Part shown: positions 6,290 through 53,043 of the stretch, piece by piece
How positions within the stretch are numbered: the stretch's first letter is position 1
Layout: each line of letters opens with the position of its first letter
Assembly: GCA_039714215.1 (NCBI GenBank)
Contig: JBDLJU010000001.1
Location: forward strand, 5,425-69,424
DNA length: 64,000 bases
DNA from: Chloroflexota bacterium
GTDB taxonomy: Bacteria; Chloroflexota; Anaerolineae; Anaerolineales; UBA11579
Direction of reading: 5' to 3'
Notes under the pieces: model-generated
The model's database searches: none
What the model was told of the DNA's origin: nothing
Seen by the model: the letters and a program-made list of their open reading frames with translations, nothing else
Position numbers and translations under genes: made by a program

Positions 6290-8564
6290 GTTTAACTCCA
6301 GGGATCCCAGTGACCTGGCCTATGATCCAGGTTTCCTCGGTGATAGAGGATTGCAGAGCCTCCACCTGGTCCTTGTCAACAATTACCACCATCCCAATAC
6401 CCATATTGAACACACGGTACATTTCAGGTTTATCAATATTTCCCACTGACTGAATTAGCTTAAATATCTCTGGCACTTCCCACGAACGCATATCCAAATT
6501 AATGCCATATCCAGCCGGCAGCACTCTAGGGATGTTATCAATATGCCCGCCACCAGTGATATGCGCCAACGCCTTCACGGGATTATGAGGTTTAGTGAGC
6601 AGTGGTTGCAGTAACCCCAGATACGATCGATGCGGGGTAAGCAATGCCTCAAGAATAGTTAGCCCTGAATTTTTCAACCGGTTGTTGACCGGATATCCCT
6701 CAAAGATAGAACGGATCAAGCTGAAACCGTTGGTATGCGGTCCGTCAGAAGCAATCCCAACCAGCAAGTCACCAGCTTCAATCCCTGACCGGGGAAGGAT
6801 TTTACCTTTTTCGACAACACCAACGATCGTACCAGCGAGATCAAATTGATCCTGACGGTATACCCCAGGCATTTCGGCAGTTTCTCCACCCAGGAGTGCA
6901 ATCCCAGCTGACCGGCAGGCTGCTGAAATCCCAGTTACAATTTCTGCCAGATGTTCTGAGACCAATTTGCTTGAGGCGTAATAATCCAGAAAGAAGAGGG
7001 GGAAGGCCCCCTGGACAAGAATATCATTGATACAGTGATTGACGATGTCATGTCCAATGGATTGGTAGCTCCCAGCTTTGCTGGCAAGAATTACCTTCGT
7101 CCCAACACCATCGGTGGAAGCGACCAATACCGGGTTCGACAATGTGCTCAAACTAGAGATATCAAACAACCCACCGAATGAGCCTACTTCTGATAAAACC
7201 CTGGAATTATAAGTGCTTGAAACGGACTTTTTGATCAGATCCGCTGCGCGATTACCTTCATCAATCGAAACCCCAGAAGAAGCATAATTCGATGGTGTTT
7301 TGGCAATATCCGTGCGGTACTGCATGCCTGGGAATTTTATCTTTTCAAGCTGCCCGTTGGCATTCCTGGCAGCATCATTCAGTTCAGATCCCAGAGCGGT
7401 AATACCTAAAACACGGCCGCCGTTGGTCACTACCTGCTTGTTTCCAAAGGCGGTACCTGCATGAAACGCCCATCCATCGGAAACCAACTCCAACCCGGTT
7501 ATCGGATCCCCTTTGCGATATTCTTCGGGATATCCTTCAGAAGCCAGCACAACACACACAGCATATTTTTCATTCCAGCCAACCGAGTCCTTGATCTGGT
7601 CAAGCTCACCAGCTTCGCATGCGAGTAGAATCTCCACCAGGTCGCCATTTAATAAGGGCAAGATTACCTGGGTTTCCGGGTCGCCAAAGCGGCAGTTGTA
7701 TTCAAGCAGCCTGGGACCTTCTTCAGTCATGATGACCCCCGCATAAAGCACACCTGAGTAGGGAGTGCCTTCCGAAGCCATTCCACGCAATGCAGGAGCT
7801 ATGAAAGCCTCAGTCAGGTCGGCAGCCATTTCCGGTGGGCAATAAGGACTTGGGGCGAAAACACCCATCCCACCGGTATTCGGACCCTGGTCATTGTCCA
7901 GCAGCCTCTTGTGATCCTGCGCTGGCGGCATGCTTAGCAATTTTTTACCGTCAGTAAAAGCTAATAAGGAAACTTCTCGGCCAAACAAACGTTCTTCAAT
8001 AACCACTTGGGTTCCTGCATCCCCGAATTTGTTTTTATTGAAGATCAAATCCAATACGGCGACAGCCTGATCGTGATCCTCCGGTAAAAATACGCCTTTC
8101 CCCGCGGCTAAACCTGATACCTTGATCACATACTGATAGCTGACAGTTTGAATATACTCTAGAGCCGAGGAATGATCATCAACGACTACAAATTGCGCAG
8201 TTGGTATTTCATGGCGCTGCATAAATACTTTCGAAAACACTTTAGATGATTCAAGTTGAGCGGCTGCCTGGGATGGACCAAACACCAAATAGCCATTTTT
8301 CCTCAACTCGTCAGAGACTCCTGCAGCTAATGGAGATTCTGGACCAATCACAACAAAGTCAATCTCATGCTTTTTTGCAGCGATAAGGATTTCTTCGGCA
8401 TCATCCACATCACCGGGGATATTCATTCCAAAATCCGCAGTGCCCGGATTCCCTTGCATGCAGAACAGCTTCTTCAACCTTGGAGATTGGGAGAGCTTCC
8501 AAGCAAGCGCATGTTCTCTCCCGCCAGCCCCTAACAAGAGGATATTCACCTTAGCATTGTCCAT
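6282..8564 (-). CDS. purD/purM: Fused GAR synthetase (PurD) and AIR synthetase (PurM)
   Basis: 760 aa single ORF. Residues 1 to ~425 form the PurD ATP-grasp (LLLGAGGREHALAWKL, EYNCRFGDPE). Residues ~435-760 are PurM (GSFGGLFD, VASTDGVGTK, GGETAEMPG, HITGGG). Confidence 0.93.
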   Translation of the reverse strand: MDNAKVNILLLGAGGREHALAWKLSQSPRLKKLFCMQGNPGTADFGMNIPGDVDDAEEILIAAKKHEIDFVVIGPESPLAAGVSDELRKNGYLVFGPSQAAAQLESSKVFSKVFMQRHEIPTAQFVVVDDHSSALEYIQTVSYQYVIKVSGLAAGKGVFLPEDHDQAVAVLDLIFNKNKFGDAGTQVVIEERLFGREVSLLAFTDGKKLLSMPPAQDHKRLLDNDQGPNTGGMGVFAPSPYCPPEMAADLTEAFIAPALRGMASEGTPYSGVLYAGVIMTEEGPRLLEYNCRFGDPETQVILPLLNGDLVEILLACEAGELDQIKDSVGWNEKYAVCVVLASEGYPEEYRKGDPITGLELVSDGWAFHAGTAFGNKQVVTNGGRVLGITALGSELNDAARNANGQLEKIKFPGMQYRTDIAKTPSNYASSGVSIDEGNRAADLIKKSVSSTYNSRVLSEVGSFGGLFDISSLSTLSNPVLVASTDGVGTKVILASKAGSYQSIGHDIVNHCINDILVQGAFPLFFLDYYASSKLVSEHLAEIVTGISAACRSAGIALLGGETAEMPGVYRQDQFDLAGTIVGVVEKGKILPRSGIEAGDLLVGIASDGPHTNGFSLIRSIFEGYPVNNRLKNSGLTILEALLTPHRSYLGLLQPLLTKPHNPVKALAHITGGGHIDNIPRVLPAGYGINLDMRSWEVPEIFKLIQSVGNIDKPEMYRVFNMGIGMVVIVDKDQVEALQSSITEETWIIGQVTGIPGVKLV

Positions 8565-11455: not shown

Positions 11456-12217
11456 TTAAATCATTGCCAGGCCATTTTTGAATAAAGAAAGACCTAAATA
11501 TTTTCCTTTCTCATTTTTGTTCCTCGTCCAAGAGGGATTTTGATAAAACATAATATGGTCTTCTGGATGGGGCATCAACCCGAGTATATTCCCAGCTGGA
11601 TTGGTGATCCCTGCAATCCCGCTGGGAGATCCATTCGGATTCTCTGGATAAACCATATCTGCGCTGGATCCGTCCGAATATGAGTATTTTAATGCAATTT
11701 GTGAGTCAGATAGCGTCAGATTATCTTCTAACAAAAACCGACCTTCTCCATGAGCCACCGGGCAAACTATTCGCTCAATTCCTTTCAACCAACCAGATGG
11801 GTTGTTCTGGTTGAGTGTGAGCGTCACCCAGCGACATTCAAATTTTGCAGATTGATTATACGTCAATGTAGCTCGGTGACCGTTCCCTGGAAGCAAATCT
11901 GCTTTGACCAGTGCCTGGAAACCATTACAAATCCCAACTACTGGCCTACCAGACTCTACAAACTGTTTGACAACTTCAGAAAACCGGGTCTGCAGTTCGA
12001 TTGCCCAAAGCTGGCCAGCACCGAGTGCATCACCGTAAGAAAATCCACCCGGCAGAGCAAGCAGTCCAAAATCATCCCCCAGGCGATCAAGCTTCGCTAA
12101 TTCAGATAAGGGGATTATCTCGGGTTTTCCGCCAGCCAGTTGAAAGGCAGCCGCCAAATCGCCATCCCGATTCGTACCAGGAGCATGAAGAATTAACACA
12201 CGCTTTTCAGCTGCCAT
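11456..12217 (-). CDS. purQ: FGAM synthase glutaminase subunit
   Basis: Class I GATase with GGFSYGD, catalytic Cys in GICNGFQ and MPHPED. I place the start at ATG 12217 (MAAEKRVLILHAPG), not the ORF-track start at 12265. It overlaps the purL stop by 11 nt. Confidence 0.9.
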   Translation of the reverse strand: MAAEKRVLILHAPGTNRDGDLAAAFQLAGGKPEIIPLSELAKLDRLGDDFGLLALPGGFSYGDALGAGQLWAIELQTRFSEVVKQFVESGRPVVGICNGFQALVKADLLPGNGHRATLTYNQSAKFECRWVTLTLNQNNPSGWLKGIERIVCPVAHGEGRFLLEDNLTLSDSQIALKYSYSDGSSADMVYPENPNGSPSGIAGITNPAGNILGLMPHPEDHIMFYQNPSWTRNKNEKGKYLGLSLFKNGLAMI

Positions 12218-15143
12218 GTGAAGGGTCCTTTCCCGAACCGGTGAATGCCTGCAGGAGTTGATCAATTTCTAACTGTATTAGCGAATCAGAATCGTTTACG
12301 ATCTCGAGGATTTTGTCATCGGAAACCAGTCCAATCAATCGGCAGGGCAGGGGGGTAAATAATTCTTCAAAAACGTTTTTGTTCTCCGAAGAAACCGTTA
12401 CAAGCAAACATCCGTTGGTTTCTGCAAAACATGTCTGAATGCTAGATAGATCCACATTATTGAGGTTAACCCGGGCCCCTCTCCGCCCTGCGAGACACAT
12501 CTCAGCAAGGGAAACTGCCAAACCGCCTTCGCTAAGATCATGTGCTGCGGTAACCAGGCCTTTAGCTATTGTTTTATAAAGGCAACGATAAACCTGTATG
12601 TTTTCTTCAGATAAATCGGGGGGTCTATATTTTTGGGTAAACTTCCCTTCAACAGCAATATCGATCCTAGCCAGGTGGCTGCCAACGAATGTCGGTCTCC
12701 AATCCCCAATCAAATAAATCAGATGACCAGCTTGCTTCACATCCATCGTAATTGTTTTTCGAATGTCTGGAACAATGCTGATGCTCGAAATTAACAAGGT
12801 TCCAGGAATGGCGTGATGCTTTCCATCCTGACCGATGTATTCATTATTTAGTGAATCTTTTCCTGAAATAAATGGCGTGCGATAAAGCAGAGCAGCATCA
12901 CGACAGCCGCGGGCTGCCTCCACCAGCGAGCCGAGAATTTCAGGTCGATTGGGATTTCCCCAGCAGAAATTATCTAAAAGGGCAATCCGATCTGGGTCAG
13001 CTCCAACAGCTACCAGATTACGAACGGCCTCGTCAACCACGCTGAGCGCCATGTAATAGGGGTCAGACTCGCCGATGAGTGGATTGATCCCATTGGCCAC
13101 TGCAAAACCCCGCCAACCAGCAGTATTTAGAGGCTTAATCACCGCTGCATCACTGGGACCATCCTGTTTTTCCCCTGAAAATGGCTTGACCACTGTCGAG
13201 CCGCGTACCTCGTGGTCGTACTGTCGAATTACTTTTTCTTTGGAAGCGATATTCGGATGTGACAGTAATTTTATAAGAAGCTCTGAATAATTGACTTGCT
13301 GCGGAGAAATATTTAGAGATGCGGGTAAGTAATTTTCATCTCTAAATATGGCACTCGCTTCCAATTTTTTATCTGGAATTCCATTATGCAGGAATCCATT
13401 TCTCAACTCAACCACGGGGGTACCTGCGATGGCGACCTTGAGTGAGCCGCTCTCCTCAAAGCTACCGATATCACTGAGCTCAATCCAATACCGGCTGCAA
13501 ATTTCTTCCAGCTCATGAACCTTGTCTGCGGGGACCGCAAGCACCATTCGTTCTTGAGCTTCGCTTAACCAGATTTCCCAGGGCGCCAGGTTTTGATACT
13601 TAAGGGTAACATTCTCAAGATCCACATTTGCGCCCAACTTGCTGCTCATCTCTCCCACAGCGCTGGAGAGACCCCCGGCGCCGCAGTCCGTGATCGCATT
13701 GTAGAGCTTGTCATCCCGGGCAAGTTCAACCACTTCGATTAAACCCTTCTCGGTAATCGGGTCGCCAATTTGAACGGAAGCACCAGCCACTTCGCCGGTT
13801 TGAGCATCCATGGTGAGGCTGCTGAATGTCGCACCCCGAATACCATCCCTCCCTGTGCGTCCTCCGATCACAATGATCCGATCACCGGGTTGGGGAGAGG
13901 TCGGATGGGAATCAACCGGACCGATCCCTATACTCCCGCAGTAGACCAGGGGGTTAGCTGTATACCCAGGATGGTAATAGATTGCCCCATTGATCGTCGG
14001 AATCCCCAATTTGTTGCCATAGTCACCAACACCAGAGACCACCCCTGCCTGGATCCGCTTGGGATGGAGCACATTCTCTGGCAGGTCTCCCTCACCGCTC
14101 TCCTGGGGACCAAAACAAAGCACGTCCGTGTTTGCGATCGGCCGGTGAGAAACACCGAGCACATCACGCACGACACCACCGACACCGGTGTTTGCCCCAC
14201 CAAAAGGCTCGATCGCAGATGGGTGGTTATGGGTCTCTACTTTGAAGGAGAGGTCAAACTGATCATCAAAAGCAATCACTCCAGCGTTGTCCACAAAAGC
14301 TGAACGCACCCAGGAAGCATCAATTTCCTCGGTAACTGAGCGCAGATATCGGTTTAAAATGCCGTCAATGATTACTCCTGAATCGAGCTTTATCTCAGCT
14401 TTAAAGGTCTTGTGTACGCAGTGCTCCGACCAGGTTTGGGCCAAAGTTTCAAGTTCAGCATCAGTTGGATCCCGTTCAATCCCAATGAAATAATCTCGGA
14501 TGGCGATCATTTCTGTGAGATCGAGAGCCAATCGTCGTTCCTCAGATATCTTTAGTAATCTGGTTTCGTTCGCTGTAAGCAGGGAGATTGTTTCAATCAC
14601 AGGAAGCTCATTACTCGTAGTGTTGATGAACTCCGGATATATTTTTTGGTACGAAAAACGTTGAATTGTGCTGTTTACCAACAATTTTGAGGCAATTTGC
14701 TCAATTTCTAGCGGATTCATCACCGGATCGAACTGATACCGCATTCCAGTTGCTGCACCAAGAATATTTGAAATGCCCATGCGCCGGGCTGCTTCTAATA
14801 GCTCCTGGGCAGTGTTGTCAGTCACACCAGGACGGAAAGCGACTTCAACAGAATTTTCATTGTTTGAGGGATTGTTATTTTTTACAACCCTGTGTTTGAC
14901 CTGCTCTATGGCGTAGCTTTCAGTCACAGGGTCGATAATAAGCTTCTCTGTTAGTCTTTTCACCGTCGGAAGATCCAAATCTCCTTTAAGGAAATAGATA
15001 TTTTGAATTTCTGGGAGCTGGTATCCCCCAATCCCGATCACTTCGAGTTGGGTCTGGAGCTGGCGTTCCCGCTGTCTGAGGTTCGACGAAATCTCGATTC
15101 GAAAAACCTTTCTTGAATCCTCGCAATGATGTCTAGACAACAT
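12207..15143 (-). CDS. purL: FGAM synthase II (PurL) with an N-terminal tandem PurS-like domain
   Basis: 978 aa. Residues ~240-978 are small-type PurL (ETHNHPSAIEPFGGANTGVGG). Residues 1 to ~235 contain two PurS-like repeats (RLTEKLIIDPVTESYAIEQV and IASKLLVNSTIQRFSY). No glutaminase domain is fused. Confidence 0.92.
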   Translation of the reverse strand: MLSRHHCEDSRKVFRIEISSNLRQRERQLQTQLEVIGIGGYQLPEIQNIYFLKGDLDLPTVKRLTEKLIIDPVTESYAIEQVKHRVVKNNNPSNNENSVEVAFRPGVTDNTAQELLEAARRMGISNILGAATGMRYQFDPVMNPLEIEQIASKLLVNSTIQRFSYQKIYPEFINTTSNELPVIETISLLTANETRLLKISEERRLALDLTEMIAIRDYFIGIERDPTDAELETLAQTWSEHCVHKTFKAEIKLDSGVIIDGILNRYLRSVTEEIDASWVRSAFVDNAGVIAFDDQFDLSFKVETHNHPSAIEPFGGANTGVGGVVRDVLGVSHRPIANTDVLCFGPQESGEGDLPENVLHPKRIQAGVVSGVGDYGNKLGIPTINGAIYYHPGYTANPLVYCGSIGIGPVDSHPTSPQPGDRIIVIGGRTGRDGIRGATFSSLTMDAQTGEVAGASVQIGDPITEKGLIEVVELARDDKLYNAITDCGAGGLSSAVGEMSSKLGANVDLENVTLKYQNLAPWEIWLSEAQERMVLAVPADKVHELEEICSRYWIELSDIGSFEESGSLKVAIAGTPVVELRNGFLHNGIPDKKLEASAIFRDENYLPASLNISPQQVNYSELLIKLLSHPNIASKEKVIRQYDHEVRGSTVVKPFSGEKQDGPSDAAVIKPLNTAGWRGFAVANGINPLIGESDPYYMALSVVDEAVRNLVAVGADPDRIALLDNFCWGNPNRPEILGSLVEAARGCRDAALLYRTPFISGKDSLNNEYIGQDGKHHAIPGTLLISSISIVPDIRKTITMDVKQAGHLIYLIGDWRPTFVGSHLARIDIAVEGKFTQKYRPPDLSEENIQVYRCLYKTIAKGLVTAAHDLSEGGLAVSLAEMCLAGRRGARVNLNNVDLSSIQTCFAETNGCLLVTVSSENKNVFEELFTPLPCRLIGLVSDDKILEIVNDSDSLIQLEIDQLLQAFTGSGKDPSHGS

Positions 15144-20827: not shown

Positions 20828-21538
20828 TTAGCCTTCGCGCTTTTCAAAACAATACCCAATCCCATGCTCAGTGTGCAAATATACCGGATTGGCGGGATCT
20901 TGCTCCAGTTTTTGTCGCAATCTTCCAACATATACTCTAAGGTACTCTGATTCTTGACCATATTCTGGTCCCCAAATTTGTTTTAAGATCCGTTGGTGAG
21001 AGAGCACTTTTCCAGAATTTCTCATCAAGAGAACCAATAAATTAAATTCAGTCGGAGTTAGCACAACCCCCTCCCCCAAGACATCCACGCTGTGGCGACC
21101 TACATCCACAAAGATATTACCTTGCTCTATCTGTTCATCAGCAACCGGGATTTCTTCCCAGTTCGCCCGGCGAAGGACAGCCTTGACCCTGGCAAGCAGC
21201 TCACCGACCCCAAATGGCTTTGTGAGGTAGTCATCGGCGCCTAGATTAAATGCCTGGATTTTATCTCGTTCTTCACCAAGTGCGGAGAGCACGATGATCG
21301 GAACTGTTGAATTTTCCCGGATGCGCCTGATCGTCTCAAGCCCATCCATGATCGGCATCATTACATCTAAAATCACCAGATTGATTAATTCCTTATCAAA
21401 TTTTTCTAAGGCCACTATACCATTAGAAGCTGTAGTTACCAGGAAGCCGCGCACCTCCAGATTCTTCCTAATAAATTTTCTTAATGGTTCTTCATCATCG
21501 ACAACTAAAATGCTGATTCTTTTCATCGTAAGTTTCAA
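20828..21538 (-). CDS. OmpR/KdpE-family response regulator
   Basis: 236 aa with a receiver domain (ILVVDDE, phospho-acceptor in LVILDVMMP) and a winged-helix C-terminus (LRVYVGRLRQKLE, GIGYCF). Confidence 0.9.
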   Translation of the reverse strand: MKLTMKRISILVVDDEEPLRKFIRKNLEVRGFLVTTASNGIVALEKFDKELINLVILDVMMPIMDGLETIRRIRENSTVPIIVLSALGEERDKIQAFNLGADDYLTKPFGVGELLARVKAVLRRANWEEIPVADEQIEQGNIFVDVGRHSVDVLGEGVVLTPTEFNLLVLLMRNSGKVLSHQRILKQIWGPEYGQESEYLRVYVGRLRQKLEQDPANPVYLHTEHGIGYCFEKREG

Positions 21539-26451: not shown

Positions 26452-26454
26452 GTG

Positions 26455-26527
26455 TGGCGAGGGACGGACTTGAACCGTCAACCCATGGCTTATGAGTCCA
26501 TTGCTCTGCCGATTGAGCTACCTCGCC
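26455..26527 (-). tRNA. tRNA with CAT anticodon (elongator Met, or Ile2 if lysidine-modified)
   Basis: Cloverleaf folded by hand: acceptor GGCGAGG/CCTCGCC, D-stem GCTC/GAGC, anticodon loop CTCATAA, T-arm GACGG-TTCAAGT-CCGTC, discriminator A. There is an A31.G39 mismatch, CCA is not encoded, and it is not initiator-like. Confidence 0.9.
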
Positions 26528-26599: not shown

Positions 26600-26980
26600 T
26601 TACTCATTGAAGGTCAACCACATGATCCAGGCATCCCAATTGCTGGTGAATTCTTGTGGTTCAGCTTCCTGGAATTTCTCTTCAGGTATATAGCCGCCAT
26701 CCGGGATGGGCACGATGACAATATCATCCTCCATCCCCATCCAATTCTGCTCGCGCGCCCACTCTGCAATCGCCTCATCAGATTCGGCATATTCAATTGA
26801 CTGCATCAATGAATATTCTTGGGCTTGTAGATCCGCCAGTCTCCCCTCTTCAACCTCCATTTGGCCGCGCAGTTCCATCAAGTGGATCATCCGGGAATTA
26901 AAATCAACCACCAGCAGCAGTAAAAGAACTACCCCTAAAGCAGTTGCTATTCTTCGTGCCCAAGCCCGGAATATCTTCAT
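26600..26980 (-). CDS. FtsB/DivIC-like septum-formation-initiator family protein (tentative)
   Basis: Start taken at ATG 26980 (MKIFRAW). It has a single N-terminal TM (ALGVVLLLLLVV), a coiled-coil segment (RGQMEVEEGRLADLQAQEYSL) and an acidic tail. Confidence 0.5.
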   Translation of the reverse strand: MKIFRAWARRIATALGVVLLLLLVVDFNSRMIHLMELRGQMEVEEGRLADLQAQEYSLMQSIEYAESDEAIAEWAREQNWMGMEDDIVIVPIPDGGYIPEEKFQEAEPQEFTSNWDAWIMWLTFNE

Positions 26981-27016: not shown

Positions 27017-27070
27017 GTAAAAATAGAATCTGCAAGAAACATTCCAATCAACGATTTTACGAGATACCCC

Positions 27071-27108: not shown

Positions 27109-27192
27109 TGCCGAAGGTGGGAGTCGAACCCACATGGGCCGAAGCCCACTACGCCCTGAACGTAGCGCGTCTGCCTGTTCCGCCACTTCGGC
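27109..27192 (-). tRNA. tRNA-Leu (CAG)
   Basis: Acceptor GCCGAAG/CTTCGGC, anticodon arm CTACG-TTCAGGG-CGTAG, long variable arm GGGC-TTCG-GCCC, T-arm GTGGG-TTCGACT-CCCAC. Confidence 0.93.
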
Positions 27193-42774: not shown

Positions 42775-44535
42775 TTATTCCGCCTTGAATGGCACCTCAA
42801 CTACTTTTTTGTGAACTTCAGCCAAAAGCGTGTCTTTGATCGCTAAGACATTGCTGATAATTTCATCGACGGGGACTGCACTACGATCAGCATCCCGCCG
42901 AAGCTTAAGTTCAATTTCGCCTTTCTCGAGAGAGCGCTTCCCAATCGTCAGTCGGATAGGCACACCGATCAAATCAGCATCATTGAATTTAACCCCAGGG
43001 CTCTCGCTGCGGTCATCAAGGAGCACCTCCAAACCGGCCTCCTCCAGCTGCTGGTAAACCTCAGCAGCTTTCTCCTCCCCGCCTTTCAATGCCACAATAT
43101 GAACCTGGTACGGTGCGATCGTAATCGGCCAAATCAATCCATGCTCATCGTGATGCTCTTCAGCAATACACGCCAGCAGCCGTCCGCTGCCAATCCCATA
43201 ACTCCCCATAATTACTGGCTGGGCCTTTCCGTTCTTGTCTAGGAAATTAGCGCCAAGCGCTTCTGTGTATTTGGTACCTAATTTAAAGATATTACCAATT
43301 TCCACACCGCGTTTCTCGTCTAAAGCGTTTCCGCAGTTTATACAGGCGAAATCTTTTTCTGCTGCAGTGATGTCTGCAACAATCGACGCCTCAAAATCTC
43401 GACCATAATTGACGTTTAGATAATGGAAACCTTCTTCGTTAGCTCCACTGACTAAGTTTGGTGATTTCGCAACCAGCTCGTCAACCACAACCAGCACATC
43501 CTTTAATCCAATCGGGGATGCGTAACCGGGCGAAGCACCGACTGCAGCGATTTCATCATCCTGTGCAGGACGCAATTCCTTGGCTTTTACCGCGTTAACC
43601 AATTTTGTTTCATTCAATTCCAAATCGCCGCGAACTACTGCAAAGACCAATTTCTCATGATCTTCGGTGCCTTCAGTAAAAGTTCCCATCATGAAAACCG
43701 CCTTGGCAGTTTTACTCTCAGGGATTTTGAGGAATTCAGCCAAATCTGCAATGGTGGCTGCCCCTGGAGTGGCCACTTTTTCCAACTCTCCCAAAGGTTC
43801 CTCTGTTATCTCAGGCTGTTGAAACAGGGCAATTTGCCGGTTCGCCATGTAGCCGCAATCGTTACAGATCAACAGGGTGTCCTCCCCTATCGGGGTGAGG
43901 TACATATACTCGTGCGCCATCGAACCGCCCATCATGCCCACATCAGAGAGCACTGCCGCTGAAGGCAGATCGCAGCGATTGAAGATGTTGAAATACGCCT
44001 GGTAGTGAGCTTTATACTGTTTATCAAGCCCCTCTTCATCCAGGTCAAGGCTGTAGCTATCCTTCATGGTGAACTCGCGGACGCGAATCAAACCCGCCCG
44101 AGGACGAGGGTCATCTCGAAACTTGGTTTGAATATGGTAAACCAGCTTGGGGAGCTGTTTGTAGGAATGGATCATCTTGCGCACCAGGTCAGCAACCACC
44201 TCTTCATGGGTCATTGCCAGGACCATATCGGCATCTTTACGATCTTTGAAGCGTCCCATCTCACTGCCGATTTCGTAATAGCGGTTGGTTTCTTTCCAAA
44301 CTTCTGCAGGGTTTACTACCGGCATGCTCAATTCCTGACCGCCGATTGCATTGATTTCGTCCCGCATGATATTTTCAATTTTATTCAACGAGCGCTTTGA
44401 TAAAGGTAGAACCGAATAAATTCCCGCACCAAGCTGCTTGATAAACCCCGCCCGTACCAGCAGTTGATGGCTGGCGACTTCAGCGTCAGCGGGGACCTCT
44501 CGTAATGTTTGGAAAAACAGATCGCTCATCTTCAT
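42775..44535 (-). CDS. proS: Prolyl-tRNA synthetase (bacterial type with INS editing domain)
   Basis: 586 aa with class II motifs (FRDDPRPRAGLIRVREF, GSYGIGSGRL) and a C-terminal anticodon-binding domain. Confidence 0.96.
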   Translation of the reverse strand: MKMSDLFFQTLREVPADAEVASHQLLVRAGFIKQLGAGIYSVLPLSKRSLNKIENIMRDEINAIGGQELSMPVVNPAEVWKETNRYYEIGSEMGRFKDRKDADMVLAMTHEEVVADLVRKMIHSYKQLPKLVYHIQTKFRDDPRPRAGLIRVREFTMKDSYSLDLDEEGLDKQYKAHYQAYFNIFNRCDLPSAAVLSDVGMMGGSMAHEYMYLTPIGEDTLLICNDCGYMANRQIALFQQPEITEEPLGELEKVATPGAATIADLAEFLKIPESKTAKAVFMMGTFTEGTEDHEKLVFAVVRGDLELNETKLVNAVKAKELRPAQDDEIAAVGASPGYASPIGLKDVLVVVDELVAKSPNLVSGANEEGFHYLNVNYGRDFEASIVADITAAEKDFACINCGNALDEKRGVEIGNIFKLGTKYTEALGANFLDKNGKAQPVIMGSYGIGSGRLLACIAEEHHDEHGLIWPITIAPYQVHIVALKGGEEKAAEVYQQLEEAGLEVLLDDRSESPGVKFNDADLIGVPIRLTIGKRSLEKGEIELKLRRDADRSAVPVDEIISNVLAIKDTLLAEVHKKVVEVPFKAE

Positions 44536-44715
44536 AAATTCTTCTCCTAAAGCATATTAAAAAACAATCCCCGAATTATCGGGGGCAATAGTAAACAGTT
44601 GAAATCAAAATAGATACCGATTATATCTATTTGGCCCCTCCAAATTGAATTCCCGGCACAGAGGCCGGCGTAGGGACAGGGAATTTAATCATGTCACACT
44701 TCATATATTTAACCA
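44536..44715 (-). promoter_or_regulatory. proS 5' leader (~180 nt) with alternative terminator/antiterminator pairing
   Basis: Three hairpins are present: 44650-44685, 44608-44632 and the terminator. GGGGC (44638-44634) is complementary to GCCCC (44586-82), the 5' arm of the terminator. Confidence 0.45.
44558..44586 (-). terminator. Terminator-like hairpin inside the proS 5' leader
   Basis: Minus strand CCCCGA-taat-TCGGGG followed by ATTGTTTTTT, 22-50 nt upstream of the proS ATG. Confidence 0.55.
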
Positions 44716-44721
44716 TGCTAG

Positions 44722-44750
44722 TTTATACCGTTTGAATTTTTTTTTGTCAA
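44722..44750 (-). promoter_or_regulatory. Sigma-70-type promoter of proS
   Basis: Minus strand TTGACA (44750-44745), 17 nt, TATAAA (44727-44722). Confidence 0.6.
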
Positions 44751-44781
44751 GAAATAACCCAAACGAATATGAAGAATAGCC

Positions 44782-44797
44782 TGGCACAGACCTTGCA
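44782..44797 (+). promoter_or_regulatory. Sigma-54 (-24/-12) type promoter upstream of the 44836-53043 operon
   Basis: TGGCACagaccTTGCA matches TGGCAC-N5-TTGCA at all 11 core positions with canonical GG/GC spacing. The GC lies ~40 nt upstream of ATG 44836, and SD GGAGG is at 44826-44830. Confidence 0.6.
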
Positions 44798-44835
44798 CAT
44801 TATTAGACTATAGAAAAACAAAGCTGGAGGCTGAC

Positions 44836-45174
44836 ATGAACAAATTGGACACAACACAAATAATTCTCCTGGTAGATGCAGTCCTTTTCCTCTTAGGAGT
44901 GATTACTTTTATCACCGGGATCATCATTTTGGCATCGAAAGCAATGAGCCGCGATATTCGCACAATTTCCTCGCAAACGGCTCAGCTTGCCCAGAAAGGA
45001 ATCGCCGAAGACGTTGCAGGCCTGGTGGGGAATGCCTCCGCTCTGATGAACGCCCTGCAGCAAATGGTTAAAACCGCCACTGGGATCGGTGTTTTCATGG
45101 TCATGCTCGGAATCCTCCTGATCGGCGCGTCCATTTTTGTTTTCCTGAATATTAACAACTTTCCCACATTCTAA
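44836..45174 (+). CDS. Small two-TM membrane protein (hypothetical)
   Basis: 112 aa with TM1 at ~aa 8-33, an amphipathic helical middle (SSQTAQLAQKGIAEDVAGLVGNASALMNALQQMV) and TM2 at ~aa 86-105. Good SD. The next gene starts 9 nt after its stop. Confidence 0.6.
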   Translation: MNKLDTTQIILLVDAVLFLLGVITFITGIIILASKAMSRDIRTISSQTAQLAQKGIAEDVAGLVGNASALMNALQQMVKTATGIGVFMVMLGILLIGASIFVFLNINNFPTF

Positions 45175-45183
45175 GGCCTGCTG

Positions 45184-48100
45184 ATGAGTAATTTACTTGT
45201 TCAAAACCTCAAAAAATTGTTCTCCGAAGACCAATTTGGTCAGATCATTCGTGGGTTAAGGACCGATGCTGCAGTCTGGACTGCAGTCCAGGACCCAGCA
45301 ATAACAAAAAAAATGGTTGACCTTGCAGGTCCTGATCTTTCCCGCTGGACGCCAGCTTTTGCCGCCTTGACCATTTTAGGATTTTCGGACCTCTTTCCGA
45401 AGCTCAAGACGGATACTTTTTCATTGGATGAAAACCTAAAGAACCAGGCTTTGGTTGAACTTGAAAAAATCACCACTCAATCAAACGAAAACACATACCC
45501 CCTTCCAATTGAATCTGCTGTACTGGCAGCTCTTGCCCTCAGGGAACGCTGGTTGATATTAATGCAGCCAGACATTTCTGTATTTAAGGTCGAATCAAAT
45601 CTTGCTGCCTGGAAATCAGTGATTGCCTGTTTGATTGGACTATTACCCGACCCCGCAAGCCTGATAACCGATCTGCTGAACGCCAATTCCCCAAAACTGC
45701 ACACCCTGGCGATCCACGGCCTGACCACCAACCCGGCAGAAGAAGAACATCTTTCAGATGTTTTCTTGCGAGCAGCCCTCGAGCTCTCCCCGATTGCAAG
45801 GATCGACATTTTACGCCAGTGCACACAACTAAATCCCAAACTGGCAGAATTCCTGGCAATCAGATTGATCAAACAATTGGAGCTAGGAAATCGCCCTAAC
45901 AATAATCCCTTTGATAATATTCAAAATCTCGTAGAAATGTCCGAGATGCTCAAGATTACTGGTCAGTACGAGCAAGCCATTCCCGCACTTGAAAACTTAT
46001 GGCAAACCACGACCAACTTGCAAACTGACCTGACCGCTCAATTAGCCCAGGCAGCTGCGAAAAACAAGGATCAAGATTCAGCATTGTTAGCTGTTGAAAA
46101 GATCGCCAAGCTCGCAGACCAAATTCCGGTGGACGCCAGCGCTGATATTGCCCTGGCACAAATTCAAACTGGTCAGCTCGACCCCAATAATTTAGAGATT
46201 AAATCTATCCCAGCTACAAATAAACCAGAAACCCCTTCAGCCCTACTGGCTAAAGCGCAGTTGGCTGTAAAAAATAATCAACAGGACCAGGCTCAAACTT
46301 TCGCTGCCCAGGCATACGAAGCTACGATCCAATTCCTCCGCACGAAAGATACGCTGCCCTCAGACATTTCCAATACACTCACCCCCGATTTCCTTCAGGC
46401 TTTGATTGCGTGCTTGATTGAGCTGGAGCTTGCCATTGAGGCCAGTGAATTAGCTGATTCTGTTATTGCCATGCTTCCAAACCATGCGGAAATTGTGAAT
46501 TTATTCAGCCAGGCAAAATTCCTTTCTGGTGAGACGACCAAATCACTCGAAAACGCGTACGTTGCCTCTGCTTTAGAACCCAACAATCCTTTTTACCGGC
46601 GCAGCCTGATCGAAATGCTGGTGAAAATGGAACGCTGGCAGGATTCTGTCAGGGAAGCAGACGCATACCTGGCTCAACTTGATACACCCAGCACGGCTGA
46701 TATCCACCTGGTTGCCACCTGCTACCTGCACACCAAACAATATCGTGATGCTGCAATCATCGCCAACCGGGGCCTGGCATTAGAAACAGACAGCAGCGAC
46801 CTTCATGCCCTGCTCGGAAAGATCTACCAGCAGGACAATAAGACTGAAAAGGCAGTAAAACACTATAATCAGGCGATCTTGATCAGCCCCCAGACCACGG
46901 AATTCTGGTCTGATCTCGCCATGCTCTACCAGGATCAGGGGAAAGTAGAAAAAGCTGAGGAAATCCTCTTTTCTGCTTTTGAGGTGATCCCCAACAACGC
47001 CCACCTCCACCTTCAGCTAGGTCAAATCCACTGTGCAAACAACAAATCTACAGAAGCCCTCGCTGAATTCAACATTGCCCATCAATACGTTGATGTAGAG
47101 ACTACCCAAGAAACTCGGCAAGAAATCTTCACACAGCTCGGTACTCATTTACAAAATCAAGGGTATCGCCAAGAAGCACTTACCACGCTTGAGGAAGGTC
47201 ACCAGGCCTTCCCGGTGAACCCAAAAATAGCTCATCTGCTGGGAAAGTCACTCTCGGATGATGGGAGAGATCAAGAAGCATTGGCAGCTTTTGAAATTGC
47301 TTCCCAATCTAAAAAAGTAACTGCCAACCTGCTCCTGGACCACAGTAAAGCCCTGCTGGCTGTTGGCGGAAAATCAGCCGAAGCAGCGGAAAAGATTTCA
47401 CAGGCTTTGGAACTTGAGCCAAACAATCAGCTGTGCTCTCCCCTCCTGGGTGAAGCTGCTGCACAGTCCGGTGACCACCATCAGGCGATCAATATTTTCC
47501 AGAACGCTCTGCAGTCTGACCTTGCTAAAGATCCAACCTGGCAGGTAAAGCTCTCCACCAACCTGGCTAATTCAGCCTTTGAACTCAACCAACCTGAGAT
47601 TGCTATCACCTTCTTGCAGGAATCTTTACAGAAATCTCCTGACAACTTATTAGCAAAACAAACCTTATGCCAGGCTTTCATTTATACCAACCTGAACAGG
47701 GATGCCCAGAGATTGATCGAGGAAATCCTTGAACAGAATCCACAGAACCTGGAAATCCTGATGTGGGCGTCTGATCAGGCGATCAAAATCAATGATCTTG
47801 ATTATGCCTCTGAAGTTCTCAACCAGGCCAAAGAAATCGCCCCCCAGAAAGCCGACATTATGGTCCGCCTGGGATACATTCAGCTCGAAAAGGGCGAAGA
47901 AGCAGTAGCCAGAGAGACCTTTGGTCAGCTGTTCTCCGCAGAAAATGTGGACATCAGCAACCTGCGCCTCGCCGCTCAGGCCTTAATTGGTCTTGGTGAT
48001 ATTTCCAGCAGCATTCCTTATCTTGAGAAAGCGCTGGAACTCAGCGATTATAAATCCAGCGACCTGCTCCGAGAGCTGACCATCCTGCACCTGCAATCTG

Positions 48101-50469
48101 GTAATGATCAAGCTGCCCTCGAGACTGTTCAGAAACAAATCAAGATCCAGCCGATGCAGTCCAGCTTACATGTCAGCGAAGCAGATATTTTCTGCAAGCT
48201 CTCCCAACCCAATGCAGCGCTGAACAGCATGCTGAAAGCGCTCAAACTTGCCCCGGATTCTGCACCACTGCATCTCAAAACTGCCAGACTGCAACGGACA
48301 AATCACGATCTCTCGAAGAGTCTCTTCCATATCAAACGCGCTCTGCAAGCAGATGCTGCTGATCCCGAAATTCAGATCCAGGCTGCGGAGGTGCTCCAGG
48401 CATGCTTGTTAGATGAGCAAGCCTTGTCAGTGACTTCCTCGCTGCTCGAGAATGAACAGCCAAGCCCCGCAGCGCTTGTCTTGAGAGCTGAACTGCTCCT
48501 GGATCAGAGTTTTGAAAAAGACCAGGATCAAATTGAAGATTTGGTCCGGATGGCGGCCCGCTTGTCTAGCAGTGACCCCAAACTGATGGCCCTCCAATCC
48601 CGAATCGAATCCCTTTTCGGTGACTCTTATAGAGCAGAAAGTATTTTTGAACAGGCAATGCTCAATCTCTCCGCCTATGATGTCAAAGAGCTGGACGATC
48701 TATCCCTGAGCACAATAAAACTCTCCCTTGCTAAAGCTGCACTTGAGATGAAGAAATGGGATATCTCCATATACTTCTCAAAGGAAGCACAGAAGCTAAC
48801 TCCGAATGAACCCGCTCCTTATTTACTGCAGGTGATTGCCTATACAAAACGAGCTGAGGCCCATTTCCGCAGCAGAGCAATCCATATGGGCAACCCAACC
48901 TCCGTATCGATTGCCAGACACCCAATTACGATAGCAGCTTTCAACCAGGCAATCGAATCCACCGAAAGCTTTGCCCCCGCCCCATCCGCCAACAATACAC
49001 TCAGCCGCTGGCGCACACGTGGAGAGCTTGCCTTGTTGGATAAAGAGCCAGGCACATCGATTGACACATTGAGCGAAACTCCTGATGACTTTGCCGCCCT
49101 GCTGACGGCTTTTAATAAAGCAGAAATCGTCCCTGATATAGACCTCTCACGGCATCATCAATCGGCAGAGGTGATTTTCCAACGGGCACTGCTTAATTCA
49201 CAGCTGGACCCAGAACAAGCGCTCACATTGGCTGAGACTCTCGTTCAGATGACCCCCAACAACCCTGAATATGCCGCATTGTATGCCTTCCTTGCCAAAG
49301 CGGTTGGAGAAGATCAGGTTGCATTAAACAGCATCGAACACGCCATCAGGCTGGTCAGCGGCGAGTCGTTGTGGCACGCCTTAGCTGGCGAACTGCATAT
49401 GACCTTCTCCAACTACCCTGAGGCAATCAGCCACTTTGAACTGGCTCAGAAGATCGACGAAACCAACCCAGCACACAGCTTCAACCTTGGAAAAGCATAT
49501 GCAGCCAATAACTATTACGCAAAAGCGATCCCAGCCCTTGAAAAAGCTGTCGATCAAGCCCCGCTCGAGCCAGAATACTGGATTTCACTGGCGAAAACTT
49601 ATCAAAGCAGCGAGCAGGACGATTCTGCCATCGAGGCGGTCAAGAAAGCGTTGAAATTAGCGCCGAACAGCCTAAAAATCGTGCTGTCTGCGGCAGAAAT
49701 TGCCACTCAGTCTGAAACAGAAAGCGCCGTAGGCGAGAAATTGGCTGCTAAAGCCGTATCCATGGCAACCCAATCTTCCGTAGAGATCATTCAAATTTGT
49801 GAGCTGCTGGTCAAGCTCAATCAAATTGAGCAGGCGCTGGTTTACATCAACGGAAAGATCGATTTAGCCGTTGAGCAAATTCCTCTGCTGATCCAGCGGG
49901 CGAAACTGATTGGTTTACAACAAGGCAGCCAGGAAAAACTCAACCTGCTGATCGAACTCGCCAAAGAAAATTCCAAAAACCCATTGATCTTTGCTAATCT
50001 GGCCGATGCCTACATTGATACAAACAATCCTGAGGAAGCAATTCGCTCTGCCCAGTTTGCGCTCAAGTATGCCGACCAATCACTCGACCTCCCCCACCGG
50101 GCAAAGCTGCATTACCAGCTCGGCGTGCTTCTCCGTCAGTCCGGTCAGCTCGACCAGGCATTACACCAACTGACGCAAACACTGCAGCTCACCCCGAACT
50201 TCCTGGCAGCTCACCTGGAGATCGGTGAAACACTGACCCAAAGAAATGAATTCGAAAAAGCCTTAACTCATTACCAGACGGCGATTGAAATTTCGCCGAA
50301 TGACCCCAGAGCTTACAAAGAAGCTGGGATGCTGCTCAAAGAAGGAAAAGATTATCTCGGCGCAGAAACCATGTTCCGGCAAGCTTATGCCCACGATAAA
50401 AACGACCTATTCATTCAACGCCAGCTGGCGGCTGTGATCGCCCTGGCATTAATTCACCAGCCAAGGTAA
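45184..50469 (+). CDS. Giant TPR-repeat protein (1761 aa), no signal peptide
   Basis: Uninterrupted 5.3 kb ORF. From ~aa 430 onward it has recurrent 34-aa TPR-like periodicity (e.g. ALGKIYQQDNKTEKAVKHYNQAILISPQ, LAMLYQDQGKVEKAEEILFSAFEVIPNN). Confidence 0.85.
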   Translation: MSNLLVQNLKKLFSEDQFGQIIRGLRTDAAVWTAVQDPAITKKMVDLAGPDLSRWTPAFAALTILGFSDLFPKLKTDTFSLDENLKNQALVELEKITTQSNENTYPLPIESAVLAALALRERWLILMQPDISVFKVESNLAAWKSVIACLIGLLPDPASLITDLLNANSPKLHTLAIHGLTTNPAEEEHLSDVFLRAALELSPIARIDILRQCTQLNPKLAEFLAIRLIKQLELGNRPNNNPFDNIQNLVEMSEMLKITGQYEQAIPALENLWQTTTNLQTDLTAQLAQAAAKNKDQDSALLAVEKIAKLADQIPVDASADIALAQIQTGQLDPNNLEIKSIPATNKPETPSALLAKAQLAVKNNQQDQAQTFAAQAYEATIQFLRTKDTLPSDISNTLTPDFLQALIACLIELELAIEASELADSVIAMLPNHAEIVNLFSQAKFLSGETTKSLENAYVASALEPNNPFYRRSLIEMLVKMERWQDSVREADAYLAQLDTPSTADIHLVATCYLHTKQYRDAAIIANRGLALETDSSDLHALLGKIYQQDNKTEKAVKHYNQAILISPQTTEFWSDLAMLYQDQGKVEKAEEILFSAFEVIPNNAHLHLQLGQIHCANNKSTEALAEFNIAHQYVDVETTQETRQEIFTQLGTHLQNQGYRQEALTTLEEGHQAFPVNPKIAHLLGKSLSDDGRDQEALAAFEIASQSKKVTANLLLDHSKALLAVGGKSAEAAEKISQALELEPNNQLCSPLLGEAAAQSGDHHQAINIFQNALQSDLAKDPTWQVKLSTNLANSAFELNQPEIAITFLQESLQKSPDNLLAKQTLCQAFIYTNLNRDAQRLIEEILEQNPQNLEILMWASDQAIKINDLDYASEVLNQAKEIAPQKADIMVRLGYIQLEKGEEAVARETFGQLFSAENVDISNLRLAAQALIGLGDISSSIPYLEKALELSDYKSSDLLRELTILHLQSGNDQAALETVQKQIKIQPMQSSLHVSEADIFCKLSQPNAALNSMLKALKLAPDSAPLHLKTARLQRTNHDLSKSLFHIKRALQADAADPEIQIQAAEVLQACLLDEQALSVTSSLLENEQPSPAALVLRAELLLDQSFEKDQDQIEDLVRMAARLSSSDPKLMALQSRIESLFGDSYRAESIFEQAMLNLSAYDVKELDDLSLSTIKLSLAKAALEMKKWDISIYFSKEAQKLTPNEPAPYLLQVIAYTKRAEAHFRSRAIHMGNPTSVSIARHPITIAAFNQAIESTESFAPAPSANNTLSRWRTRGELALLDKEPGTSIDTLSETPDDFAALLTAFNKAEIVPDIDLSRHHQSAEVIFQRALLNSQLDPEQALTLAETLVQMTPNNPEYAALYAFLAKAVGEDQVALNSIEHAIRLVSGESLWHALAGELHMTFSNYPEAISHFELAQKIDETNPAHSFNLGKAYAANNYYAKAIPALEKAVDQAPLEPEYWISLAKTYQSSEQDDSAIEAVKKALKLAPNSLKIVLSAAEIATQSETESAVGEKLAAKAVSMATQSSVEIIQICELLVKLNQIEQALVYINGKIDLAVEQIPLLIQRAKLIGLQQGSQEKLNLLIELAKENSKNPLIFANLADAYIDTNNPEEAIRSAQFALKYADQSLDLPHRAKLHYQLGVLLRQSGQLDQALHQLTQTLQLTPNFLAAHLEIGETLTQRNEFEKALTHYQTAIEISPNDPRAYKEAGMLLKEGKDYLGAETMFRQAYAHDKNDLFIQRQLAAVIALALIHQPR

Positions 50470-50481
50470 ACAGGATAATCC

Positions 50482-53043
50482 ATGGAAAATCTAACAAGCA
50501 CTTACACCAAATCCAGAGTTATCAACCGCAGTACGCTGCTTGCCATGCTTAACGCGGCGGTCTCGACCGGAGCAACCAAATTTGCCCGCAGGGCTGCCGC
50601 GATGTGGCTGGAGGCGTTTTCCGGCGACTTGGCAGTCGAATACCAACAAGCCGCAGCGATGTTGAAAGATGACCTGGTCACAGATGCGATACCAATACTC
50701 AAACAAATTTGTTTCACTGACCCAGAATACCTGGCTGCCCAGCGTCTATTGGCATATTCAAGCGGGCACGCTCAATACTCGTCAGTGGCAACTGCCCAAG
50801 GCTGCATTGCAGCTTTAGGCGGCAGCTACCGGGGAAGCAGTCCTGCCCCTGAATGGGCTGACCTGCTGGTAAAAGCTCGTGAAGCTGAGCGCACAAAAAA
50901 TATTTCTGAAGCGCAGCAATTCTATCTAGAAGCACTCACCCTGCAGCCAAACACGCCATTACCAGCTGTGCTGCATCTGAAATTCACTGTGGAACAATAT
51001 GACTGGAAAACCAATTACAAATTAGGCGAACAGTATATTGCCCGCTGGCCTGATGCGCTCTCCTGCATCCTCACACATGCAAACACGCTCACCGCCGGCG
51101 GCGATCAAGGACAATCGGTCAGCTTACTGCATCAAGCAGCATCCCTGGACATTGGCGGGCAGGTCGCCGCCCGGTTGTGGGGCACAACCCATGCATATCT
51201 CGGCATCTGGCCGCAGAACCCCACCCTGGAATTTAACCTCCCCATCCCCGCTGAAGTAGCCGCAGTGCTGGGCTGGAATCAGCTGCCTCAGGGGAGTGAA
51301 TCCCGGAAAAAATCTTCCCGAATATTTAACTTCAAGCAAACATCAAGTGATAATACTGAAGAAGAAATCAACGTCTCAAACCAGGTAATCGAATCCGCAA
51401 AAGAAGAATTTGAAAAACTTGCGTCAAAGCTGAAAAAATCAGACCTCGGAAATGGCGATGGCCGCTTCCCAGTTTATCTGGTGATCACCTCGCAGCAGGG
51501 GCTTGAAAAACAATATGGCATCGACCAGCTGGCATCGATTGACGCCGCTCTCAAGCAAGTGGTGACAGCAACCCAGATGCTGCCCAATTGGAACTCCTAT
51601 CTGGTGTATGTCGATGAAGCCACCTCAACGGACCAATTTGGCCTCCCCCCGGCGAAAGCGAATGACGCCTGGGCAATTAAATCCCTGATTAACAAACTAG
51701 ACGAGCGTCTTGCACAGGGAGGAGAAATGATTGGTGCAATCTTGATTGTTGGTGGGCCGACGGTGGTACCCTTCCACCACCTGCCAAATCCAATTGATGA
51801 CTTTGATACCGATGTGCCTTCAGACAACCCGTATGCCAGCTCGGATGAAAATTATTTCGTGCCCACCTGGCCGATTGGCAGGCTCCCGGGCAGCGGCGAC
51901 AGCGACCCAACCGCCTTACTGCGCCAATTAGAGAAGGTGAACCGAGACCGTAGTGCCAGGATCACCCAGAACAGCCGCTCCTTCTTCCTGAGATTGTTCG
52001 ATTGGCTGCGATCAAAGATCAGCATGAATAGCAGCAAGCACAACTTCGGTTATTCTGCCGAAGTCTGGCAGCGGGCTGCACATTCTGTTTTCCGCCCGAT
52101 CGGGAAAGCGCACACCTTGATGATTTCCCCACCGACAGAAGCGGTTAATTTCGAGCGCAAGAAACAAAAACCAAGCCGTCTGGCATACTACAACCTGCAT
52201 GGGTTGGAAGATGCCCCGGAGTGGTACGGGCAGAGAGACCCGATTGAAACGATTAATGGCCCTGACTATCCGATTGCACTACGCCCTAAGGATATCCAAA
52301 ACAGCGGCAGTGCCCCGCACATTGTGTTTTCCGAAGCCTGCTTTGGAGCGAATATCTTCCAAAAGCGGATTGAGGATGCCATTGTGCTCAAGTTCCTGGA
52401 CTCAGGCACCAAGGCAGTTGTCGGCTCAACCTGCACCTCCTACGGCTCAATCGCTCCCCCGCTGATCGCCGCAGATCTCTTAGGCAAGGCATTCTGGAGC
52501 ATTCTCAAAGATGGCTACCCTGCCGGTGAAGCGCTGCGCAGAGCAAAAATCCATCTGGCGAAAGATATGAACCGCCGGCAAGGCTACCTCGATGGTGAAG
52601 ACCAGAAAACCCTGGTTTCCTTTGTGCTTTACGGCGACCCATTAGCCCAGCCTGATTTATTGAATGAGAACACCGCTGCAAAGGCTAACTTACGCCTGAC
52701 CTACGATTCAGAAAATATCCACACAGTCTGTGACAAGGTCAATCACCCCAACGAAAATTCGATCCCGCCTGAGGTGGTCAAACAGGTCAAATCTGTGGTC
52801 AACCAATATCTCCCCGGAATGAGTAATGCCCAGGTGCACTACAGCCACAGTCATGTAGAGTGCAGCGGTCACGATTGCCCCAGCAACCATATGGGCGCTA
52901 AGACTGCACCAGATCATCCCCTCACCCGCAAAGTGGTGACACTCAGCAAGAAGTATGAAAGAGGCAAGAGCACCCATCACCAACACGCACGAATAACGAT
53001 TAATGCCAAAGGCGAGATGGTAAAACTGGCAGTATCCCGCTAG
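50482..53043 (+). CDS. Helical-repeat N-domain fused to a gingipain (C25)/caspase-like clan CD His-Cys domain; His/Cys-rich tail
   Basis: 853 aa with ILIVGGPTVVPF...VPSDNPYASSD...WPIGRLPG, then YYNLHG (His573, nt 52198-52200) and IVFSEACFG (Cys620, nt 52339-52341). This is the order and context seen in C25/CHAT/caspase folds. No signal peptide. Confidence 0.6.
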   Translation: MENLTSTYTKSRVINRSTLLAMLNAAVSTGATKFARRAAAMWLEAFSGDLAVEYQQAAAMLKDDLVTDAIPILKQICFTDPEYLAAQRLLAYSSGHAQYSSVATAQGCIAALGGSYRGSSPAPEWADLLVKAREAERTKNISEAQQFYLEALTLQPNTPLPAVLHLKFTVEQYDWKTNYKLGEQYIARWPDALSCILTHANTLTAGGDQGQSVSLLHQAASLDIGGQVAARLWGTTHAYLGIWPQNPTLEFNLPIPAEVAAVLGWNQLPQGSESRKKSSRIFNFKQTSSDNTEEEINVSNQVIESAKEEFEKLASKLKKSDLGNGDGRFPVYLVITSQQGLEKQYGIDQLASIDAALKQVVTATQMLPNWNSYLVYVDEATSTDQFGLPPAKANDAWAIKSLINKLDERLAQGGEMIGAILIVGGPTVVPFHHLPNPIDDFDTDVPSDNPYASSDENYFVPTWPIGRLPGSGDSDPTALLRQLEKVNRDRSARITQNSRSFFLRLFDWLRSKISMNSSKHNFGYSAEVWQRAAHSVFRPIGKAHTLMISPPTEAVNFERKKQKPSRLAYYNLHGLEDAPEWYGQRDPIETINGPDYPIALRPKDIQNSGSAPHIVFSEACFGANIFQKRIEDAIVLKFLDSGTKAVVGSTCTSYGSIAPPLIAADLLGKAFWSILKDGYPAGEALRRAKIHLAKDMNRRQGYLDGEDQKTLVSFVLYGDPLAQPDLLNENTAAKANLRLTYDSENIHTVCDKVNHPNENSIPPEVVKQVKSVVNQYLPGMSNAQVHYSHSHVECSGHDCPSNHMGAKTAPDHPLTRKVVTLSKKYERGKSTHHQHARITINAKGEMVKLAVSR

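Follow-up and report, generated by a model that had tools for sequence, protein, structure and literature searches.

The window, that is the whole 64-kb stretch of DNA that was analysed, carries three consecutive forward-strand genes, ORF1, ORF2 and ORF3 (Table 1), and the short gaps of 9 and 12 nt between them fit an operon, here referred to as ORF1-TPR-C25. ORF1 matched no Pfam or NCBIfam family and a look-up of its exact sequence returned no record. The window's ORF3 by itself falls below the Pfam thresholds. Among 16 ORF3 orthologues, Peptidase_C25 was matched in 10 (best E 4e-14) and CHAT in 7, and H573, G574 and C620 are invariant in an alignment of 16 sequences; hence, the "clan-CD-like" label that an earlier note on this DNA had attached to the protein is reasonable at the family level. 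His573, as part of a His-Gly pair, and Cys620 would constitute the catalytic dyad. Homologues of ORF3 carry the names of Anaerolineales or Chloroflexota MAGs, many of them with Peptidase_C25, and the window itself stems from an Anaerolineales-type Chloroflexota MAG.

Upstream of ORF1, positions 44782-44797 of the forward strand read cTGGCACagaccTTGCAc, in which TGGCAC and TTGCA are separated by agacc and flanked by a c on either side. All 11 positions of the sigma-54 core TGGCAC-N5-TTGCA are matched, as had been claimed, and the GG and GC doublets lie exactly 10 bp apart. The motif has the orientation of the operon and starts 54 nt 5' of the ATG at 44836, with 38 nt between element and ATG that include a GGAGG, in agreement with the earlier description. 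The predicted 5'UTR is about 27 nt long and without stable structure.

Table 1. Coordinates of features in the window and, where an L number is given, in loci of relatives
Feature	Position	Strand	Remarks
Predicted sigma-54-type core promoter TGGCACAGACCTTGCA	44782-44797	+	-24 GG at 44783-44784; -12 GC at 44795-44796
Predicted transcription start	44806-44810	+	From sigma-54 promoter geometry; ~12 nt past the -12 C
Shine-Dalgarno GGAGG	44826-44830	+	5 nt before ATG
ORF1	44836-45174	+	112 aa; small membrane protein with two hydrophobic segments; first gene of the operon
ORF2	45184-50469	+	1761-aa TPR protein; start 9 nt past the ORF1 stop
ORF3	50482-53043	+	853 aa; N-terminal TPR region and C25/CHAT-like (clan CD) domain
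Divergent sigma-70-type proS promoter	44722-44750	-	TTGACA 44750-44745; 17-nt spacer; TATAAA 44727-44722
proS upstream region	44536-44750	-	Leader of ~180 nt
Terminator-like hairpin and T-run	44584-44569		Just before the proS ribosome-binding site
Inverted repeat CTTCATAT / ATATGAAG	44699-44706 / 44767-44774		8 bp
Weaker, probable sigma-54-type site TGGAATGTTTCTTGCA	27031-27046	-	67 nt before ATG 26980; conserved
DivIC/FtsB-like gene	26600-26980	-	126 aa; DivIC E 5e-5, below the Pfam cutoff; homologues named FtsB
tRNA-Leu	27109-27192		Upstream of the DivIC/FtsB-like gene; with terminator
tRNA-Met	26454-26527		Downstream of the DivIC/FtsB-like gene
OmpR-type regulator	20828-21538		
Purine cluster, fused genes	6282-8564; 12207-15143	-	
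Sigma-54-type site before rpoN (examples)	L083 9934; L085 9932; L086 9933		Also in ~50 loci of L088-L156
Gene A	L073 202-1545; L020 769-2109; L077 12720-14015		Conserved protein of ~445 aa
Sigma-54-type site before ftsZ	L073 1509; L020 2073; L015 1483; L019 1240; L041 1456; L116 14485; others		
Degenerate tandem site before ORF1	L043 4233; L047 4052; L050 4059; L056 4093; L069 4102; L075 4081; L079 4098		
5'UTR hairpin of ORF1	L025, L030, L035, L039, L048, L051, L052, L057-L059, L061, L062, L068, L077, L078		
GGCGC-N5-ATTGCA element before the C25 gene	L048 9945; L052 9936; L058, L062 and L068 9902; L105 20209		
Site after a longer activator gene	L141 15573		26 bits

Motif frequency and the region upstream of the element

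The exact TGGCAC-N5-TTGCA occurs once in the window, on both strands taken together, and shuffled sequences lead to an expectation of 0.03, as the earlier note had stated. Its count of only two other TGGCAC hexamers was wrong, as the window holds 25 more (13 on the forward strand and 12 on the reverse). When up to two mismatches to the pattern are allowed, 18 matches are found where 23 are expected, and the degenerate pattern thus shows no enrichment. The expectation of 0.03 per window also amounts to about two such 11-base matches in a 4-Mb genome, and the motif count alone is therefore not significant genome-wide. This frequency is what speaks for a chance match without function. Such a match is hardly credible, however, since position, orientation and sequence are conserved across dozens of divergent loci (described below), and since the site scored 21.4 bits with a position weight matrix (PWM) built from 44 orthologous sites, with the window's own site left out, where the maximum across 200 simulated windows was 20.9 bits. 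It is conservation, and not the motif count, that is decisive for the promoter.

The space in which an enhancer would usually be found is occupied by a divergent, near-consensus sigma-70-type promoter of proS, which starts about 30 bp from the sigma-54 element. A block upstream of the element is strongly conserved in L081, the locus of a relative with 82% identity in ORF3, and this block belongs to the proS promoter and leader. An Rfam search of 44300-45000 with E values up to 1 returned no family, so no known RNA, for instance a T-box, accounts for the block. The 8-bp inverted repeat pointed out earlier does exist, but the suggestion that it could be a binding site did not hold up: 60% of simulated regions contained at least one inverted 8-mer pair and L081 does not conserve the second arm, and on these grounds the repeat was rejected as an activator site. 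When the DNA upstream of 26 sites of the kind found in the window (type III, defined below) was searched for a conserved enhancer, TTCGTCAATA was the sole enriched k-mer. It was rejected as an enhancer because it represents the -35 box (TTGACG) of divergent sigma-70 promoters and lies at a variable distance.

As to proS itself, its leader holds a small ORF in which four of 10 codons specify Pro (FPVPTPASVP) and which differs from L081 mostly by synonymous changes. Together with the terminator-like hairpin before the ribosome-binding site, the leader may be a proline-codon leader-peptide attenuator. Also in the window, a purine cluster contains fused genes, which encode a 760-aa GARS_N/A/C and AIRS/AIRS_C protein, that is a PurD-PurM fusion, and a 978-aa protein combining PurS with FGAM synthase.

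Conservation of the element before ORF1

An ORF3 alignment was used to scan one genome per GTDB species, which resulted in 80 loci from Anaerolineales or Chloroflexota. Of these, 60 have an orthologue of ORF1 some 5.5 kb upstream of ORF3, as the first gene of the operon, and the predicted three-gene operon is conserved in relatives. Within 300 nt before ORF1, a GG..GC site matching at least 9 of the 11 core positions was present in 45 of the 60 operons, compared to about 0.9 expected by chance as calculated from base frequencies. The distances of the orthologous sites to the ORF1 start all fall between 41 and 90 nt, with a median of 53. With the loci anchored on rpoN included, an nGGCAY-N4-CTTGCA site was found in 63 of 84 loci, at a median distance of about 52 nt and represented by 51 distinct 16-mers; the check proposed in the earlier note, whether orthologous operons carry the element, thus came out strongly in its favour. 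In L001-L080 the PWM gave 59 hits of 18 bits or more, all of them on the operon strand and none on the other.

In an alignment anchored on the site, the successive columns are G, G, C (0.93), A (0.87), Y, A/G, N3, C (0.89), T, T, G, C, A, and the sequence flanking the 45 anchored sites is unconserved. Because the sites for the PWM were chosen by the canonical consensus, the GG, TTGC and A columns are invariant in part as a result of that choice; the enrichment, position and strand bias of the sites are not products of it. Site selection made no use of the C before TTGCA or of the A/G after GGCAY, which are therefore independent signs of selection. Between the window and L081 all 11 core positions are kept, with changes in the spacer only, and the sequence on both sides of the element has diverged.

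The same alignments bear on two other ways of reading the element. TTGCA could in principle be the -35 box of a sigma-70 promoter; this was ruled out, as no -10 box is conserved downstream in the 45 anchored sites, where TAnnnT 16-18 bp past TTGCA showed no conservation. A sigma-70 consensus scan of the forward strand of the intergenic region also gave no match. Alternatively, the element may be a conserved operator for another DNA-binding protein, for instance of the OmpR type, or the site of a different sigma factor. TGGCAC and TTGCAC do resemble a direct repeat with an 11-bp period, that is one helical turn, and an OmpR-type regulator is encoded in the window. Nevertheless, the two halves differ (GG versus TG) at invariant positions, the base that follows TTGCA is unconserved while that following GGCA is always Y, and no separate -35/-10 promoter is conserved nearby. 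The element, moreover, co-occurs with rpoN and a sigma-54 activator gene, abuts the stop codon of the latter and precedes rpoN itself, as described in the following section. We hence regard an operator or a foreign sigma site as very improbable, and retain the reading as a sigma-54 promoter.

Three further elements were observed in relatives. In one clade, the main ORF1 site is accompanied by a second, degenerate site in tandem (TGGCkT or TGGCCC ... TTGCA), located 80-150 nt further upstream. In loci where rpoN precedes the operon (type I, defined below), a hairpin UCCUGA...UCAGGAGG opens the predicted ORF1 5'UTR in 17 of 19 cases and pairs with the ORF1 Shine-Dalgarno; it is missing in the window and rare among type III loci. 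Type I loci also have a weaker GGCGC-N5-ATTGCA some 50-57 nt before the C25 gene start, within the 3' end of the TPR gene, which could be an internal promoter or mere coding conservation and is absent in the window.

Sigma-54 genes, the activator and further sites

In about 20 of the GTDB loci, rpoN (RpoN box ARRTVAKYR) and the gene for an activator with a GAFTGA loop lie directly upstream of ORF1 on the same strand. Pfam identified the products of the upstream trio as Sigma54_CBD and DBD (RpoN), PAS-HisKA-HATPase_c (a histidine kinase, HK) and Response_reg, Sigma54_activat and AAA_lid_14 (the activator), and found no HTH or other DNA-binding domain in the activator. The activator has a median length of 391 aa in 49 loci, and its alignment to the NCBIfam NtrC/AtoC models ends at about position 385 of 460. 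Across the same 49 loci, the site follows the activator stop codon at a median of 10 nt (range 4-126); in L048, for example, TGGCAC lies 8 nt after the TAA.

A predicted RpoN is widespread in the lineage. The best 120 clusters of RpoN proteins in the group have identities of at least 59% and lengths of about 470 aa throughout, and most contain all three sigma-54 domains. Three RpoN proteins picked irrespective of the operon were all encoded in rpoN-HK-activator-ORF1-TPR-C25 clusters, and an RpoN-anchored metagenome scan yielded 14 more such clusters. These findings, with the site conserved before ORF1 and the sigma-54 genes adjacent in many relatives, support the interpretation put forward in the earlier note, and we consider it very likely that 44782-44797 is a sigma-54 (RpoN)-dependent -24/-12 promoter driving the ORF1-TPR-C25 operon.

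Three architectures were distinguished among the loci. The first, type I, has the order rpoN-HK-activator-[site]-ORF1-TPR-C25, and in type II the order is activator-[site]-gene A-[site]-ftsZ-three small genes-ORF1-TPR-C25. In type III, which comprises the window, L081 and 24 other loci, [site]-ORF1-TPR-C25 stands among unrelated neighbours, and the site is kept in 26 of 26. The statement that the window encodes no enhancer-binding ATPase proved correct: its ORFs of at least 150 aa contain neither a Sigma54_activat nor a sigma-54 domain, and tblastn of the window with NtrC and RpoN probes gave no match (the probes were the E. coli NtrC central domain and RpoN, used only for locating candidates). 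Since rpoN and the activator gene are absent here, we infer that they and the kinase gene are encoded outside the window in the source genome. In L127, L135 and L137, rpoN-HK-activator clusters stand alone, and no operon lies within 6.8 kb of them; this is the arrangement that a type III genome would need.

That absence from the 64 kb around the operon, and the patchy distribution of sigma-54 in Chloroflexi, are also what would be expected of a relic, in which an ancestral sigma-54 site persists after the loss of rpoN or of the activator and the operon is read from another promoter. Such a relic would not readily explain why the core is intact at 11 of 11 positions in the window and L081 despite the diverged neighbouring bases, why every type III locus keeps the site or why the window has a second conserved site, and no alternative sigma-70 promoter is apparent on the forward strand. 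We therefore assign only a slight probability to a relic. The motif, its conservation and, in relatives, its linkage to the genes for RpoN, kinase and activator are shown directly by the sequences; we infer its current use in the source genome, its start site, its signal and an enhancer-independent mode.

The second site of the window precedes a DivIC/FtsB-like gene located between two tRNA genes and is probably also of the sigma-54 type. It is the only other match to GG-N7-CTTGCA in the window, and the 15.0 bits that it scored with the PWM do not exceed chance when taken alone. The pattern TGGwwT-N4-CTTGCA with the exact GG-N10-GC spacing is nevertheless kept in five of five homologous DivIC/FtsB-like loci, which range from 46 to 100% in protein identity and one of which has a different upstream gene. 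A sigma-70-like CTTGC-N18-TATAAT is conserved in tandem and ends 6 nt before the ATG, a leaderless geometry, and the gene may thus have two promoters.

Sites of the same type were found at three more positions in relatives. In the loci anchored on rpoN, the start codon of rpoN is preceded, at a distance of about 67 nt, by a site of 19.8-27.3 bits. Of 80 rpoN loci, 55 have this site; those that lack it mostly contain rpoN genes of at most 37% identity, which probably stem from other phyla. A site before rpoN-HK-activator suggests that the unit is itself sigma-54-dependent, which would imply positive feedback, and some basal promoter must then also exist. The conserved gene A, which always adjoins ftsZ, has its own site in 14 of 15 loci. 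The N-terminus of its product reads ...NRIGFHYFPDT.HYRE.DL..WLPE..., and neither gene A nor the three small genes between ftsZ and ORF1 matched a Pfam or NCBIfam family. The ftsZ gene is genuine, with 382.6 bits to TIGR00065 where the cutoff is 295.2, and lies immediately upstream of the ORF1-TPR-C25 operon, or downstream of it in L077. In 17 of 19 Anaerolineales loci, ftsZ is preceded at 50-160 nt by a canonical TGGCAC-N5-TTGCA, mostly 11/11, compared to 0.007 expected per locus, with the qualification that some of these sites fall within the 3' end of gene A, so that coding constraint may add to their conservation. In the distant rpoN locus L141 (37% identity), a 26-bit site was observed after a longer activator gene (462 aa), and the gene past this site is no ORF1 homologue by tblastn.

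Taken together, the features suggest the following mode of action. The sigma-54 holoenzyme would bind the GG and GC doublets of the element as a closed complex. The PAS histidine kinase would be the partner of the activator, whose REC domain would be phosphorylated and whose Sigma54_activat domain carries the GAFTGA loop. With ATP, this activator would remodel the closed into an open complex from solution, with no upstream enhancer, and transcription would begin near 44808. The promoter falls outside the classical enhancer-dependent class in that the activator has no HTH and no conserved activator sites were found upstream, where members of that class have them at about 80-150 bp. An activator that lacks a DNA-binding domain should need no enhancer site, and this lack, combined with a proS promoter in the upstream space, points to enhancer-independent activation. 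Only the 16-bp core would then need to travel with the operon, which could leave the rpoN cluster without losing control.

Relation to known sigma-54 systems and biological context

The sigma-54 promoter consensus TGGCAC-N5-TTGCA was reportedly compiled by Barrios et al. in 1999, and glnAp2 and nifH are examples of canonical -24/-12 promoters. The element described here resembles these in its 11/11 core, in the 10-bp distance between GG and GC, in the short 5'UTR and in the RpoN box ARRTVAKYR of the lineage. It differs in that there is neither room for nor sign of an upstream enhancer, and the lineage adds to the consensus a conserved C before TTGCA and an A/G after GGCAY.

Enhancer-independent activation has been described for CtcC of Chlamydia trachomatis, a REC and AAA+ protein without a DNA-binding domain (PMC7482065). 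The CtcB/CtcC pair (PMC7482065) and the pair described here are alike as two-component systems with an activator of this composition, and AtoC is the closest characterised sequence relative of both CtcC and the lineage activator. Unlike CtcB/CtcC, the genes for rpoN, kinase and activator form a single cluster here, which is preceded by a sigma-54-type site of its own and usually adjoins the target operon; the target genes and the phylum, Chloroflexota, also differ. A second parallel is FlgR of Helicobacter and Campylobacter, which PMC3162934 lists as an enhancer-independent activator without HTH (type Ic). As in FlgS/FlgR, the lineage activator has no HTH and is expected to act from solution, whereas the flagellar genes controlled by FlgR are replaced by the TPR/C25-like operon, ftsZ, gene A and probably the DivIC/FtsB-like gene.

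The survey of Francke et al. (2011) reported sigma-54 and its activators in some Chloroflexi, and did not find the cell-division category to be over-represented near sigma-54, activators or promoters (PMC3162934). In contrast, ftsZ is a recurrent neighbour with its own site in the loci analysed here. Literature searches for ftsZ in combination with a sigma-54-dependent promoter, and for an Anaerolineae C25/TPR operon, returned nothing relevant. What looks new is the circuit and its regulon and not the mechanism, and the regulon is apparently undescribed.

Sigma-54 has barely been documented in Chloroflexota. The Anaerolineales are abundant and mostly uncultured bacteria of sediments, sludge and soils, described as multicellular and filamentous. 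Their circuit is a small one, with a single sigma factor, kinase and activator and a handful of targets, and the sharply defined target sites make it directly testable. We tentatively propose, as a possibility that we rate as less likely than not, that the Anaerolineales sigma-54 circuit reinforces itself and that its regulon (ftsZ, the DivIC/FtsB-like gene, gene A and ORF1-TPR-C25) is related to cell division or to the filament and not to metabolism. Sigma-54 might then serve as a signal-gated factor of division or development, and the TPR and C25-like proteins might be new division- or septum-associated factors. If sigma-54 does gate ftsZ and the DivIC/FtsB-like gene, core division genes would here be controlled by an enhancer-type sigma factor, which would be unusual, and this would provide a functional context for ORF1, the giant TPR protein and the C25-like protein, which are conserved and uncharacterised.
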